Positions 37,838 to 41,900 of a stretch of DNA of 64,000 nt are shown in pieces (the first letter of the stretch is position 1; each line of letters starts with the position of its first letter). The notes under the pieces are model-generated. The model had not been told where the DNA came from. It did no database searches and was given only the letters and a program-made list of their open reading frames with translations. Source of the stretch: Oligoflexales bacterium (GTDB lineage Bacteria > Bdellovibrionota_B > Oligoflexia > Oligoflexales > JAPPIL01); the NCBI GenBank assembly GCA_965215515.1, contig OZ244057.1, positions 1,536,001 through 1,600,000 on the forward strand. Reading direction: 5' to 3'. Made by a program: the position numbers and the translations under genes.

Positions 37838-39904
37838 CTATGAAGGCAGGTGTACAGGAACACGAGAGTCTCTTTGCTTAACTAAGTCTTTCCACCTGTG
37901 TAAATGTTGTAGGAATCTTAGTGTTTCCATGTTGATTTCATTAACGACATTGCATTTAGGAAAACTTCTCACACCATGCTCACAGGTGTAGGGGCAATAA
38001 CAGCCACTGAAGTCAAATATGTTAAGGATAATGCGGGTGAAAACTTCGTGGGACAGAGCAAAAAGTGGTGCAAGTTTATTTTTGTCACCGGTAAATTTAC
38101 CTTCGTGTGCCAAATCATTTCTAGTGTCAACTAATTTTTTTATGTCATCATTCTCAATGTCAATAGATGAAATATCCCTACTTTTTAGAAATGATTTTAA
38201 TTCACCAAGTGAACTGCCATCAAAAGTTTTCATTAGCCCTTCAATTGCAATCAGATTCAGTAACATACGGGCTTCGTCATAGTTAGGTGCAGAGAGAACA
38301 AAGCTAACTGCCTTCTCTATTCCTTTCCATTCATCAATACTGAGCTTTTGTTTTTCAATTACCTTGACAATCAGTTTCTTGAGATCTATGTCACTTTGTA
38401 TCACTGGCATGAATTGGCGTGCAGATTCACCATGACTAATAAAGGTGGTTTCTACTCTATTGCCATGGCATACCTCTGTTACGGGACAGAACAGCTTTCC
38501 TCCTTGTGCAAATTCCAACACGGAAAGTAGCCTTTTCAGAAACTCGCTTGCTCTCCTTTGCCAGTCCCCCGTATCTTCTGGTTTTGATCTTGCCGTTAGG
38601 GAAAGAGAAGCTGTTATTCTTTTATTAGTTCTATTCTTAATGCTAGTCTCAAAAGTATCTTCTAATGCAAGGATGCCAAGTCCTTCTATATGAGGTGCAG
38701 GCAATAGCTCCACTGGCTCTGCAAAACGACTATCTGATATGCTATTAACAAATTCACCGGGCGGGAAATTAATTATATGTATGTTAGTAAGGCAATCTAA
38801 TTCAGATAAGCAAAGCGTAATCTTATTGGTATTTTTCTCTAATAGATACGTGTTTTTGCCCTCTTCACTAATGACAACTTGGTTGGTCTCAAGCCACATT
38901 GGAACAGGGTTTTGGTAAATGTTACATTTTATCAACACATTCTGGCTAGTCAGCTTTCGGTTGTGGTTAGTAGTGCTTACGCAGGTCAAGTTTATCTTCT
39001 TGCTGTATACAAACAATAACTGCTTATCAGTCTCTGGCGTTCTAGGAAATGGCTCTACGTCGAGCACTATCTTGCCCGAACGGTCGGCACCTACAGTTAG
39101 GATTAACTCAAAGCTCCCCTCCTCATTGAAAATTTTACCAGTAAATTTTTCACGCTTGAGAAGGAGAGTGTCGATCCCTGTGAGACTGCACCTTTGCGCC
39201 ACTCCCCAATTTTTGACAGTGTCCTTGTAAATAATGTGTTTGAGGCAGTCGATAGATGGATGTTTGCCAACAATGAGGCTACCCTCAATCTTTACTAGTC
39301 CCCGTGATTTAAGCCAGCTGATTGCCGAATCCAGACGAGTCTTATCCCATTTGCATTTTTCCACTACCTCGGCGATTTCAACCTTAAATTCAGAGTTACG
39401 GAACAGAAAGTTTTGTACGATAAACTGAGTATCTATTTCTGCTGCCGACGGCTTAGGGAAGCTATCACTTGCACCGCGTGACATAGGTGGTTGATCAGGG
39501 TCGGTATTGAGTTTTTTGATGTGTCCCACCAAGAGATCCACATCGCATCTTTCATCTATCACATACACAGGTATTTTCAAAAGATTAGGGGGTGCTTGAT
39601 TAGTAGACAATCCATGCACAATGGGAATAAATCTGGAGCTCTTGATTAGATTAGAAAACTCGTCCTCACTCATGCCCTCTGGCCACATCTTTATAGCAGA
39701 GTATGGTGTTAGCAATATAAGAAAATGTATGTGATCATCTGTGGCTTCTCTAATTTTTTGCCACAATTTGGTAACATCATGCACACACCAAGTGCTCAGC
39801 TGGATATAAAACTCCTTCTCCTCTATGCCATCAACAATGCCACGGGCAAGCCAGTCATCTTTAGGAGCGTAGCATAGGATAGCACTAGGTATTTTGTCGT
39901 TCAT
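37838..39904 (-). CDS. TIR-like + winged-helix + ApeA-like HEPN domain protein
   Basis: AILCYAPKD...HFLILLTPYS.K.W...RFIPI (TIR-like); TRLDSAISWLKSRGLV (wHTH); LIAIEGL...RNDLAH (HEPN RxxxxH). Confidence 0.72.
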   Translation of the reverse strand: MNDKIPSAILCYAPKDDWLARGIVDGIEEKEFYIQLSTWCVHDVTKLWQKIREATDDHIHFLILLTPYSAIKMWPEGMSEDEFSNLIKSSRFIPIVHGLSTNQAPPNLLKIPVYVIDERCDVDLLVGHIKKLNTDPDQPPMSRGASDSFPKPSAAEIDTQFIVQNFLFRNSEFKVEIAEVVEKCKWDKTRLDSAISWLKSRGLVKIEGSLIVGKHPSIDCLKHIIYKDTVKNWGVAQRCSLTGIDTLLLKREKFTGKIFNEEGSFELILTVGADRSGKIVLDVEPFPRTPETDKQLLFVYSKKINLTCVSTTNHNRKLTSQNVLIKCNIYQNPVPMWLETNQVVISEEGKNTYLLEKNTNKITLCLSELDCLTNIHIINFPPGEFVNSISDSRFAEPVELLPAPHIEGLGILALEDTFETSIKNRTNKRITASLSLTARSKPEDTGDWQRRASEFLKRLLSVLEFAQGGKLFCPVTEVCHGNRVETTFISHGESARQFMPVIQSDIDLKKLIVKVIEKQKLSIDEWKGIEKAVSFVLSAPNYDEARMLLNLIAIEGLMKTFDGSSLGELKSFLKSRDISSIDIENDDIKKLVDTRNDLAHEGKFTGDKNKLAPLFALSHEVFTRIILNIFDFSGCYCPYTCEHGVRSFPKCNVVNEINMETLRFLQHLHRWKDLVKQRDSRVPVHLPS

Positions 39905-40016
39905 GGCAGAAAAACCCTTGAAATAGAGCGAAGTAAAGCCCTGCTACTTGTCATAAGTTGCCCCTTGCAAGTGTCAAGAGTGTAGCTGTGGTTTGCGATA
40001 AGCATCTCCACCGATA

Positions 40017-41900
40017 TCAACTCTTCTTTAGATACACAGCGATATTCTCTCTATTGGGGTAGATACGGGAAACAGTAAATGGATACGTTCCCTTTGCCAT
40101 GTGCCCTTCAACTAGTTTGTGTTCCATAAGGTAATGAATGGCAGGATTTAATCTACGTGGTGGGAGATTAAGAACCTCTGATACTAGCTTGGGTTCAGTT
40201 GGAAAATTGGGGTGATGTGAAAAGCTAAGTGCAATTTCCCACGCATCATCAGCTGGGTTCCATGGCTTCCACAGGTGATCAAATCTAGTGAACAACAGCT
40301 TATCAGCATATACAAGTGTCTCTCCAGCTTCTTCTCCATCTTTTCTTGGATAATCATCATGTATAAGCTTTTCTTGCTCCAGCTCTTTGATAATTCTCAT
40401 AACATCATCAATGCTAATACTAGTTGCCTCTACAAGCTCTTTGGCGCATATAGATGCGTCTATCCCTACACCTGCTTTCGCTTTCTCCACAAATACTCGG
40501 ATAACCGCCATTTTCCCTGTGATCTGATACCTTCCTGTTCTTGTTCCTCCTTCAAAATCTATGAAACCTTGATCTTTCAGGCTCTTGAGATCTCTCTCTA
40601 CTGCTCGCTGGCTTATCTCCTCACTTTCGGCAAAGGTAGCTTTGGAAAACGTGTTATTCTTGATTGTTGCTAGTAGCTTCAATGTTCGCTGTGATTGCTT
40701 AAAAGGACTGTGTTTGCCCCTCGCTCTGCGACGGTATACCCTGCGTTTAAAAACTACTGTAAAAAATTTACCAAACTCAAATTTCACAGGAGGAAGACCA
40801 GCAAGCTTGACTGACTTCTTCATTCTCTGTATCCCTGTTCCGTACCTCTCGATGTATTTTGCTCTGTGCATGAGATCAGCGATGAGCCTGTTTCTTAGAA
40901 CACTTTTCTTGCCAAAATTTTTTTTATCAAGTTCCTCTGGCAACCCCCCGTAGTTGGATATTTCCACACGGTTATCGTAGACCTCCACAGTCACATTGGT
41001 TCTCTTGTTCAGATAATCTCTATGAGTTACAGCGTTTATCAGAGCTTCACGTAAAGCATCTTCTGGAATTTCAAATACCTCTTCCCTTTGTAGTTGCCCA
41101 GGTACAATCCTGTATTCAAGTCTGAGGCTTTTTAGCAAAAATGTCATCGCACCATCTACACTGGAAATAAGGTCACTATTGAGTTGTATGGTGTCTATTA
41201 TTTTTGTTTTATCTTTTCCCCGATACAAAGCACAGGCCACTTCTGTATGCCAAAATATCTTGCCTAGAGCCTTTGCAAAAAACAACACTCCTGCGTTGTT
41301 AAAGATAGGCAATGGCTGTTTCTCCTTGTCTATGCTAACAACTTGCAGGCTTTCTAGTGATGGCAGAATGCCATCCTTATTTGGCATTGGCAGGCTAGCC
41401 TTTTCCAAGAATAGAAACAACTTGTCAACATCAAAGTCTTTCCGAGAATCGAAATCTTCACACGGAATAGTGTCAAAACCTATCAAGCCTTTTTTTTCTG
41501 CCATTTCTATGATCTCACCTCGCCGCATTTTTTTGTTGGATGCGCCGCGGCGGATATAGAAGGTATTGTTATGGGAGTGTGGTTTGCCACTACCCTCTTT
41601 CACCGCTACCACTAGGACTTTCTTGTCTCGCCTTCCTTTTGTTGGTGCATATTCCTTCATATTGACATGGATGGGAGGATCGCAGTTGTCAACCAAGCTC
41701 CCAATGTCGCCCTTGAGCTTGTTAGTCACCTCAATTCCTACCACTGCCCCAGAATCAGAAACTCCAAGGATAACTTTTCCTCCTGATGCATTGGCAAACG
41801 CACAGATAGACTTCCCTATATCGCTTGTGTATTCCTTCTTGAATTCAACGCTACTGCCCTCCCCTGTTTCCAGAGCCTCTTCAATATCTCTGATACTCAC
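40017..41900 (-). CDS. Schlafen/AlbA_2 + HATPase_c_4 + HTH protein with an extra C-terminal wHTH region
   Basis: GEGSSVEFKKE, AFANASGGKVILGV, ALREALINAVTHRDY, IERYGTGI, SQRAVERDLKSLK; C-terminal WKPWNPADDA...RRLNPAIHYL. Confidence 0.88.
   Translation of the reverse strand: MSIRDIEEALETGEGSSVEFKKEYTSDIGKSICAFANASGGKVILGVSDSGAVVGIEVTNKLKGDIGSLVDNCDPPIHVNMKEYAPTKGRRDKKVLVVAVKEGSGKPHSHNNTFYIRRGASNKKMRRGEIIEMAEKKGLIGFDTIPCEDFDSRKDFDVDKLFLFLEKASLPMPNKDGILPSLESLQVVSIDKEKQPLPIFNNAGVLFFAKALGKIFWHTEVACALYRGKDKTKIIDTIQLNSDLISSVDGAMTFLLKSLRLEYRIVPGQLQREEVFEIPEDALREALINAVTHRDYLNKRTNVTVEVYDNRVEISNYGGLPEELDKKNFGKKSVLRNRLIADLMHRAKYIERYGTGIQRMKKSVKLAGLPPVKFEFGKFFTVVFKRRVYRRRARGKHSPFKQSQRTLKLLATIKNNTFSKATFAESEEISQRAVERDLKSLKDQGFIDFEGGTRTGRYQITGKMAVIRVFVEKAKAGVGIDASICAKELVEATSISIDDVMRIIKELEQEKLIHDDYPRKDGEEAGETLVYADKLLFTRFDHLWKPWNPADDAWEIALSFSHHPNFPTEPKLVSEVLNLPPRRLNPAIHYLMEHKLVEGHMAKGTYPFTVSRIYPNRENIAVYLKKS

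Follow-up and report, generated by a model that had tools for sequence, protein, structure and literature searches.

Two co-inherited genes of Oligoflexales, encoding predicted Schlafen and ApeA-like HEPN RNases, share a homologous winged-helix domain

The window analysed here, that is, the whole stretch of 64,000 nt at forward-strand positions 1,536,001-1,600,000 of contig OZ244057.1 (Oligoflexales bacterium, GCA_965215515.1), carries two neighbouring genes on its minus strand. Gene A encodes a Schlafen domain, a GHKL-type ATPase and three tandem winged helices (wH-a, wH-b and wH-c), and gene B, directly downstream, encodes a degenerate TIR domain, a winged helix (wH-c'), a beta-rich domain and a HEPN domain. 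Together with the upstream regulatory region and the spacer between the genes, they form what we call the cassette (Table 1). An initial annotation of this DNA had described an adjacent, co-oriented and intact gene pair of low guanine-cytosine (GC) content, and this description holds: both open reading frames (ORFs) are intact and co-oriented, with a gap of 112 bp, and the GC content is 0.39-0.44 across 37.5-42 kb versus 0.51-0.59 on either side. In contigs from three sequencing runs, the cassette sequence is identical to that of the window. Our main result is that wH-c of gene A and the winged helix of gene B appear in profile comparisons as specific homologs, and that the two genes are inherited as a unit.

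Across its N-terminal two thirds, gene A belongs by sequence to a known and common class, the prokaryotic Schlafens of the "Schlatpase" type. SLFN_AlbA_2 (PF04326) is matched at 4.4e-22 (79.3 bits for a cut-off of 25.3) and the Ex4ExK motif is complete (E14-x4-E19-x-K21), in line with the Schlafen/AlbA_2 RNase that had been predicted at this locus. The Schlafen domain is followed by HATPase_c_4 (PF13749; 2.8e-19, residues 302-384), and the boxes REALINAVTHRDY, NYGGLP and YGTGI are what we take to be the N-box and G-boxes (Bergerat motifs) of this ATPase. The sole solved relative of gene A found by sequence is the uncharacterised PDB entry 3lmm (residues 265-376, 6e-8), and the PADLOC Schlafen-pAgo model matches residues 23-438 at 5e-21. 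Ex4(E/D)xK is reported as the conserved active site of prokaryotic Schlafens (pSlfn), of which the Schlafen-HisKinase-HTH (helix-turn-helix) proteins make up 19.2% of 5,930 (PMC13056530); the pair of Schlafen and PF13749 is named the "Schlatpase" supradomain, and >90% of Schlatpase tails have an HTH (bioRxiv 10.64898/2026.05.29.728809). Cleavage of tRNA is reported for prokaryotic Schlafens and for SLFN-pAgo, whose ATPase drives an ATP-dependent oligomerisation and so assembles the nuclease.

Behind the ATPase, the tail of gene A is less conventional. Besides the matches to wH-a (Table 1), Pfam reports only sub-threshold winged helix-turn-helix (wHTH) matches at residues 481-517 and 562-615, and the ESM Atlas returned for the tail only generic wHTH leads, below 0.9. 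Ten wH-c columns are invariant in 20 sequences (F540, D541, W547, D552, R582, R583, N585, P586, A587 and L591). A second Schlafen-HATPase_c_4 paralog of 732 aa, 43% identical to gene A (L016 7032-9230; G000:C1 ~697-699 kb), is located elsewhere in the window's own genome, between an aconitase and an SNF2-type helicase, with neither a B-like neighbour nor the upstream repeat motif described below.

Taken as a single sequence, gene B scores below the Pfam cut-offs (TIR_2 0.0027, HEPN_Apea 0.0074) and has no NCBIfam match, no significant PADLOC match (ThsB models, E 0.023) and no usable ESM Atlas match. Its family is small, consisting of 11 clusters with 41-72% identity. The profile of these clusters (alignment A1) retrieved 434 matches at E <= 1e-3 from 1.84 billion representatives, in three groups: TIR proteins of 300-430 aa that cover profile positions 1-220, proteins of 400-460 aa that cover positions ~430-665, and proteins with other N-termini that cover positions ~250-655. 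A domain scan of 33 of the 434 found TIR_2 at 1e-11 to 1e-27 in 12 of the 12 TIR-type matches scanned. The metagenome scan with the gene B alignment gave 0 loci from 77 pattern matches, and the viral contig scans with A1 and a smaller alignment, A3, gave 0 loci.

The C-terminal half of gene B appears ApeA-like. A first AlphaFold2 (AF2) model of the whole protein, based on 11 sequences, reached a predicted local distance difference test (pLDDT) of 55.9 and was unusable in its middle. For residues 245-688, it is superseded by a second model based on 63 sequences (pLDDT 87.3, predicted template modelling score 0.88), in which a beta-rich stretch at B 249-437 (strands through fragment residues 5-193) is followed by a helical stretch at B 505-629. 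The initial annotation had predicted an ApeA-like HEPN RNase with the motif RNDLAH (residues 595-600), and the relatives of gene B are consistent with this domain assignment. The R and H of the Rx4H motif are kept in 59 of the 63 aligned relatives, the four exceptions being one truncated row, two sequences with R..R, and P0035 with R..D. Gene B itself scores 17.2 bits against HEPN_Apea (PF18739; cut-off 24.4), and the profile relatives P0041 and P0052 pass this cut-off with 25.6 and 29.7 bits; several relatives of the C-terminal group also match PADLOC "Cas13-ApeA". When the second model was searched with VIA-align, 9 of the top 24 rows were HEPN proteins, as judged by title or cited paper (AbiA, Csm6 twice, the sacsin HEPN, AF_0298, HEPN toxins and 5yep), all aligned on model residues 214-391 with modest Z scores of 5.7-7.6. 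Foldseek of the same model against the PDB found nothing at E <= 0.001, and the beta domain had only weak Hcp/tail-tube-like matches (Z 5-7). In the gene B ortholog of a second genome (P0166; L001 8001-10127, genome G048), RHSLAH replaces RNxLAH, with R and H kept and the usual Asn not.

The domain that precedes the HEPN domain places these similarities in context. "ApeA-NTD1" is described as consisting mostly of beta strands and preceding HEPN(ApeA) (PMC3710099, in excerpt), and the modelled ~200-aa, mostly-beta domain of gene B, in the same position, appears to fit that description. In contrast, the structures of Escherichia coli ApeA, an anti-phage protein that cleaves tRNA anticodon loops, are described as largely alpha-helical, built from N-terminal, Mid and HEPN domains and assembled in ring oligomers (bioRxiv 10.64898/2026.01.26.701840, in excerpt). 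The resemblance of gene B to ApeA therefore holds for the HEPN family and does not extend to the characterised ApeA system. It also differs from ApeA, which is a single gene, in adding an N-terminal TIR and winged helix and in having an upstream partner gene. In G049, a genome of another genus, stand-alone ApeA-like genes are found 3-8 bp behind other partners (L013 1611-5100 and L012 2901-5144), which are either a Mrr_cat_2-ResIII-helicase gene (747 aa) or a DUF4062 gene (361 aa).

At the other end of gene B, residues 1-135 of the first model were matched by Foldseek to PdTIR, BtTir, TcpB and AbTir (prob 1.00, TMt 0.58-0.66), and a PDB profile search retrieved 7uxr_A at 1.3e-4. We aligned the N-termini of 10 of the 11 family members (P0008 is without N-terminus) with 13 canonical TIR relatives. 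The catalytic Glu, at W+4, is present in 13/13 canonical relatives versus 2/10 family members (P0004 and P0005); the others have one Asp or else Gly, Arg, Lys or Ser, and gene B has Gly77, as the initial annotation had anticipated in noting that Glu seemed to be missing from its usual position. The same annotation had proposed a scaffold or sensor role, which seems reasonable: as Glu was lost and the domain is still conserved in the family, with 12 positions conserved at >=90%, the TIR of gene B probably serves as a scaffold for assembly instead of an NADase. The same fold occurs in Thoeris ThsB and SPARTA TIR-APAZ, whose TIR domains work as NADases or signal synthases and depend on the catalytic Glu; gene B has Gly in that column.

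Between the TIR and the beta-rich domain, the first AF2 model displays at B 154-214 the order H-S-H-H-S-S, which is that of a winged helix. A winged helix common to both proteins had been proposed from two similar segments, found at A 582-597 and B 189-204. Pairwise BLASTP between A and B finds no significant similarity (best E 1.2; 13.9 bits and E 27 for the two segments), and was set aside as a test because profile methods revealed the homology. Indeed, hhalign of B 145-220 against wH-c (A 536-627, 20 sequences) gave a probability of 98.2% and an E of 4e-14 over 69 columns. With the four A-type wH-c sequences alone, the values were 93.8% and 1.7e-7, and with the 16 TIR-type sequences alone, the probability was 98.2%. 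The same region of B reached 7.3% with wH-a, 42.7% with wH-b and 7.4% with the TIR-type wH-b, 20 column-shuffled controls reached at most 2.5%, and the three winged helices of gene A compared with one another gave 1.7-21.3%. Judged from these profiles, the similarity between the two genes is a specific homology and not a generic one, so that the objection of generic wHTH resemblance fails. The two genes thus overlap in one domain: gene B has TIR and wH-c and is without wH-b, and gene A has wH-b and wH-c and is without TIR. A complex prediction for B 1-235 with A 465-627 (score 0.00, mark 0.32) is used neither for nor against binding.

The origin of this shared domain leads to a larger family. 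A search with A 465-627 retrieved the A orthologs and four TIR_2 proteins (398-407 aa, E 1e-13 to 1e-9), whose C-terminal 170 residues align to the gene A tail, including "W.PWNPADD", "FPTEP" and "RRLNPA". A hidden Markov model (HMM) of the tail, built without gene B sequences, extended the set at E <= 1e-7 by 66 proteins, 292-433 aa in length, with TIR_2 in 11 of the 11 scanned. The same HMM matched six members of the gene B family at E 1e-5 to 1e-4, among them gene B of the window at E 5e-5 (positions 166-210), and the metagenome scan with A3 gave 3 loci, all TIR-wH-wH. These TIR-wH-wH proteins keep the catalytic Glu (13/13 canonical relatives) and have both wH-b and wH-c; wH-b of gene A is homologous to their penultimate domain. 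They lie without a constant partner at three loci (L015, L022 and L023). One member is annotated only as a "toll/interleukin-1 receptor domain-containing protein".

One sequence, P0183, connects this family with gene B. It is 580 aa long, is cut by the end of a 3,109-bp contig, and shows in order a TIR with Glu present, wH-b, wH-c, a B-type beta domain and the start of a HEPN domain. P0183 falls in a common 90% cluster with P0026, a TIR-wH-wH protein of 326 aa, so some "stand-alone" TIR-wH-wH records may be truncated versions of longer effector fusions. The initial annotation had seen in the C-terminus of A and the N-terminus of B the two halves of one known TIR-wHTH family. The family is real, and the tail of gene A matches its C-terminal half (E 1e-13), but the picture of a split is not supported, because gene B itself has TIR and wH-c and P0183 is an unsplit TIR-wHb-wHc-ApeA-like protein. 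The simplest history compatible with these sequences would be that a TIR-wH-wH gene fused to an ApeA-like effector, giving the P0183 type, and that wH-b and the catalytic Glu were then lost, giving rise to the gene B family. Separately, a Schlatpase-HTH gene would have gained a copy of the wH-b/wH-c tail.

Whether the two genes belong together was assessed from their distribution. Among the species-representative genomes, one locus with a gene B homolog (68% identity) was found, L001, in the Oligoflexales bacterium metagenome-assembled genome G048. There, a gene A ortholog that is 80% identical lies directly upstream of the gene B homolog, in the same order. By blastn, window positions 42388..37825 align with L001 5531..10140 as one 4.56-kb block of 78-84% identity. 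The flanks of both loci are unrelated, save one 123-bp match of 71%; in L001, the block is bordered by Fic, Ppx-GppA and holA at one end and by SNase at the opposite end. G048 is of the same genus as the window genome, and the cassette occupies a different place in it. Two further assemblies contain an A-type and a B-type gene on the same contig according to cluster look-ups (one contig of 10,349 bp, and one of 2,417,873 bp in which gene B is split into 507 + 160 aa), and adjacency in these would follow by analogy. In total, both types are on the same contig in 4/4 assemblies with an intact tail-bearing A. A tail-bearing A without B occurs in two copies, both disrupted: that of G047 is split into two ORFs, and a second copy in G048 has stops and frame changes. 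No gene B remnant was found beside either of these, and tblastn for remnants beside the A homologs L017, L019 and L020 gave only E > 1. Profile matches to gene B occur in 4/131 genomes of the phylum, all of one family, and the wH-b/c tail on a Schlatpase was found solely in the lineage that also has gene B. Therefore, co-occurrence, which the initial annotation had named as a check, is found beyond the window, and genes A and B are inherited as a unit.

A natural fusion brings the two effector types into one polypeptide. P0035 (794 aa) joins a Schlafen domain and HATPase_c_4 (42% identity to A 1-385, E 2e-94) directly to a B-type beta domain and HEPN (24% identity to B 247-651, E 5e-20), and is without precisely the wH tail of gene A and the TIR-wH head of gene B. 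This arrangement recalls the effector-associated domains (EADs), adaptors defined by a duplicate in adjacent genes together with a direct fusion elsewhere, a pattern read as homotypic coupling (PMC7159879, in excerpt). Both elements are present here: the non-enzymatic wH-c in the adjacent genes A and B, and, in the single sequence P0035, an effector fused to the core. The cassette differs from the ten EADs described in the excerpted text, which sit in vWA-MoxR and GTPase systems and among which no winged helix is listed, and a homotypic wH-c contact in the cassette would be proposed by analogy.

Upstream of gene A, the conserved block begins 490 bp before the gene and includes four copies of ATGTCGGTGCAAAGTGTCGGTG, each formed by two direct TGTCGGTG half-sites 13 bp apart (TGTCGGTG-N5-TGTCGGTG) and spaced by 97/107/97 bp. 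The window has these 4 matches versus 0 in 100 shuffles, and the 2.18-Mb genome has those four only. G048 also has four, all upstream of the gene A ortholog, G049 has two, 97 bp apart and upstream of a tail-less A homolog, and G047 has none. The repeats are invariant while their surroundings diverge, in G049 beyond alignment. They probably represent an operator array for gene A, bound by wH-a. As the array in G049 is present without the wH-b/c tail and without gene B, it would concern A's own regulation and not that of B; as far as these sequences indicate, it is tied to the Schlatpase-HTH core and not to the tail or to gene B. Promoter-like sites in the upstream region are no more numerous than in shuffles, and the one listed in Table 1 matches the consensus and no more. 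Between repeat copies 2 and 3 there is a GC-rich hairpin that resembles a terminator, with a T tail (42150-42175, minus strand); a short leader or a small RNA could terminate there, and Rfam has no match to it. For the 490-bp region, the possibility of a conserved short ORF or an antitoxin was rejected, the apparent repeated "peptides" stemming from the DNA repeats.

The spacer between A and B contains no ATGTCGGTGCAAAGTGTCGGTG motif and no terminator-like hairpin. It has a TTGACA and an imperfect inverted repeat, CTTGACA...TGACAAG, and may be an internal promoter or operator. Its higher conservation, together with the lack of a terminator, suggests co-transcription or an internal control element.

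The surroundings of the cassette are mobile and defence-like. On one side are a Replic_Relax gene, a PIN_4 gene and a RAMA-domain gene, and on the other a methyltransferase, TraK_C, TraE and a T2SSE-type ATPase; these conjugation and Replic_Relax neighbours indicate that a conjugative or mobilisable element carries the cassette as cargo. No tRNA genes were found in the window, and an Rfam scan of 37300-42800 gave only a chance snoRNA match (E 0.2). At 34839-36535, the start of the PIN_4 gene (35671-36117) is overlapped by an ORF of 302 aa that belongs to no known family, and the RAMA-domain ORF after the PIN_4 gene (84 aa) matches PADLOC PDC-S14 at 3e-13; these three may be further defence or toxin-antitoxin cargo of the island. 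The 937-aa protein encoded at 30471-33284 (minus strand) has no Pfam match; its N-terminus is hydrophobic and resembles that of type IV pilins, and it also contains proline-rich linkers and, in three repeats, a Cys-rich module ("QCCDGNT..."). In sequencing run X1, the cassette contig stops at 42552-42581 and the word depth beyond approximately doubles (51 to 92-119), pointing to a repeat, or to a junction that varies among strains, immediately outside the cassette.

Table 1. Features of the cassette, in window coordinates.
Feature	Position	Strand	Basis or description
Cassette (upstream regulatory region, gene A, spacer, gene B)	37825..42388	-	blastn vs L001
Gene A	40017..41900	-	627 aa, GTG start; AlbA_2 + GHKL ATPase + wH-a + wH-b + wH-c
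Schlafen/AlbA_2 domain, residues 14-125	41526..41861	-	Pfam PF04326
Ex4ExK motif, E14-GSSV-E19-F-K21	41838-41861	-	sequence
GHKL-type ATPase (HATPase_c_4), residues ~265-384	40749..41108	-	Pfam PF13749
wH-a, residues 402-462	40515..40697	-	HVO_A0261_N 4e-6, HTH_11, Rrf2; candidate binder of the upstream repeats
wH-b, residues ~466-535	40296..40505	-	HTH_36/MarR_2/HTH_24 matches at 481-517
wH-c, residues 536-627	40020..40295	-	"WKPWNPADD...FPTEP...RRLNPAIHYL"; module common to genes A and B
A-B spacer	39905..40016	-	~89% identity to L001 vs 78% for the block
Gene B	37838..39904	-	688 aa, ATG start; degenerate TIR + wH-c' + ApeA-NTD1-like beta domain + ApeA-type HEPN
TIR domain, residues 1-135	39500..39904	-	Foldseek, PDB profile
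Catalytic-Glu column, Gly77	39674-39676	-	alignment with canonical relatives
wH-c', residues 147-218	39251..39466	-	homologous to wH-c of gene A; hhalign, AF2 topology
Beta-rich N-terminal domain of the ApeA-like module, residues 245-440	38585..39172	-	AF2 model
HEPN domain, residues ~441-640	37985..38584	-	motif, VIA-align, relatives
HEPN motif, R595-N-D-L-A-H600	38105-38122	-	sequence
Putative operator array, four copies of ATGTCGGTGCAAAGTGTCGGTG	41976-41997, 42073-42094, 42180-42201, 42277-42298	-	sequence match
Promoter-like site TTGAGA-16-TACAAT	41996..42023	-	consensus match 10/12; -10 abuts the proximal repeat

Compared with known systems, gene A resembles the Schlatpase or HisKinase-HTH Schlafens, whose layout is given as the commonest pSlfn architecture (PMC13056530; bioRxiv 10.64898/2026.05.29.728809), in its AlbA_2 Ex4ExK motif, PF13749, HTH tail and mobile defence-like setting. 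It differs from them in having three tandem winged helices, the last two of which are otherwise found on TIR proteins, and a fixed downstream partner with a second RNase. No such tail or partner is described in the excerpts of these two papers, whose supplementary architecture tables could list one. Relative to the TIR-wH-wH family, the TIR and winged helix of gene B and wH-b/wH-c of gene A are homologous, and P0183 is a direct intermediate; the members of that family keep Glu and both winged helices and are without HEPN, in contrast to gene B, which lost wH-b and Glu and gained an ApeA-like effector. In the searched library, no paper uses the term "TIR-HEPN", and the papers that match most of the relevant terms do not describe this gene pair in title or abstract. 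The architecture of the cassette is therefore probably new, assembled from known kinds of defence proteins.

The explanation we tentatively favour, giving it a little under an even chance, is that the cassette is an anti-phage pair of two RNases coupled by an adaptor and acting by abortive infection. It would be a co-inherited two-gene conflict module of the abortive-infection type, carried on a conjugative or mobilisable island. Protein A would combine a Schlafen RNase with a GHKL ATPase, whose role is proposed by analogy with SLFN-pAgo oligomerisation, and its wH-a would bind the four TGTCGGTG-N5-TGTCGGTG repeats of the gene A promoter region. Protein B would contribute an ApeA-type HEPN RNase (R595/H600), with the Glu-less TIR as assembly scaffold. 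The wH-c present in both proteins would couple A and B in the manner of EADs, either by bringing the partners together or by making both answer one trigger. Upon infection, whichever of the proteins is the sensor, tRNA or other RNA would be cleaved by one of the RNases or by both, arresting the cell. A defence function is in keeping with the relatives of both halves, which are experimentally shown defence RNases in the excerpted literature (ApeA; prokaryotic Schlafens and SLFN-pAgo). A more detailed version, in which wH-c is a homotypic winged-helix adaptor uniting Schlafen tRNase A and ApeA-type HEPN RNase B, with the dead TIR nucleating the assembly and the GHKL ATPase gating it, seems to us doubtful as a whole.

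Several observations weigh against an adaptor-coupled pair. Adjacency was seen directly at 2 loci only, both in one genus, and the four contigs with both genes are close relatives (B at least ~68-72% identical), which may reflect a single evolutionary event. For the five distant gene B homologues (P0003, P0004, P0007, P0009 and P0011, 41-63% identity), no tail-bearing A was retrieved (7 matches among 266 candidates). The A homolog of G049 is without tail and without gene B, G000 and G047 have A paralogs of 732-746 aa beside housekeeping genes and without gene B, and ApeA-like modules in the same bacterial family follow the Mrr-helicase or DUF4062 partners. The fusion P0035 is a single metagenomic sequence; a word-index search with its ApeA-like half found only itself, and it deviates at both catalytic motifs (ExxxxExT and R....D). 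Finally, winged helices usually bind DNA, and the shared wH-c could be a DNA- or ligand-binding domain instead of a protein adaptor.

Some of these observations would be expected if A and B were two independent single-gene systems, chance neighbours on an island that moved together, in which each wH-c senses the same class of cue and the proteins are uncoupled. Most Schlatpase proteins are indeed stand-alone with an HTH tail, as Schlatpase-HTH proteins are mostly single genes (bioRxiv 10.64898/2026.05.29.728809; PMC13056530, both in excerpt), and the HisKinase-HTH fusions form the large share of pSlfn proteins quoted above. The TIR-wH-wH proteins also manage without a constant partner, A homologs occur without B, and the distant B homologues have no detected A-type partner. 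Nevertheless, the block moves as a unit, its spacer is more conserved than the genes and has no terminator, both tail-bearing A copies without B are disrupted, the wH-b/c tail occurs on a Schlatpase only in the lineage with B, and P0035 joins both effector types. We consider mere neighbourhood unlikely.

Alternatively, A could act chiefly as a DNA-binding repressor or sensor whose winged helices govern its own promoter and the expression of B, with its Schlafen/GHKL part perceiving the signal; B would be the sole killer, and wH-c would bind DNA or a nucleic-acid ligand in both proteins. The genome-unique four-copy array upstream of A, invariant in three genomes and abutting a promoter-like -10, would suit such a regulator, as would the resemblance of A's three winged helices to MarR/Rrf2/HTH_11 and the high conservation of the A-B spacer. 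However, the complete Ex4ExK of A argues for an active enzyme and not for a mere sensor, the array is also found at the G049 homolog that has neither the wH-b/c tail nor B, and its motif is missing from the A-B spacer. This division of labour appears slightly less likely still than mere neighbourhood. That the cassette has no immune role, and either keeps the mobile element stable as a toxin-type addiction or exclusion module or is a remnant in decay that no longer functions, is very improbable: it does lie among conjugation and replication-relaxation genes beside a PIN-domain gene, its family is rare and patchy in the phylum, and disrupted copies are common, but in the window both genes are complete and their catalytic motifs conserved, both halves come from families with demonstrated anti-phage activity, and the block contains no conserved small gene of antitoxin type.

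If the adaptor-coupled pair is correct in its detailed form, the cassette would be a dual-RNase abortive-infection machine shuffled from three separately known defence families, and in the far larger TIR-wH-wH family this adaptor would link NADase TIRs with other partners. If the coupling as such is real, a winged-helix adaptor would join the short list of prokaryotic homotypic adaptors and give a handle on this much larger, uncharacterised family. The upstream repeat array offers a simple entry point to the regulation of the Schlatpase-HTH genes, the commonest bacterial Schlafens, and gene B exemplifies a TIR domain that has persisted without its catalytic residue. Schlafen, HEPN/ApeA and TIR are immune modules common to bacteria and animals that have so far been studied as effectors with their own fused sensors; the cassette, P0183 and P0035 display these three modules recombined around one small winged helix, and would thus represent a concrete case of adaptor wiring.

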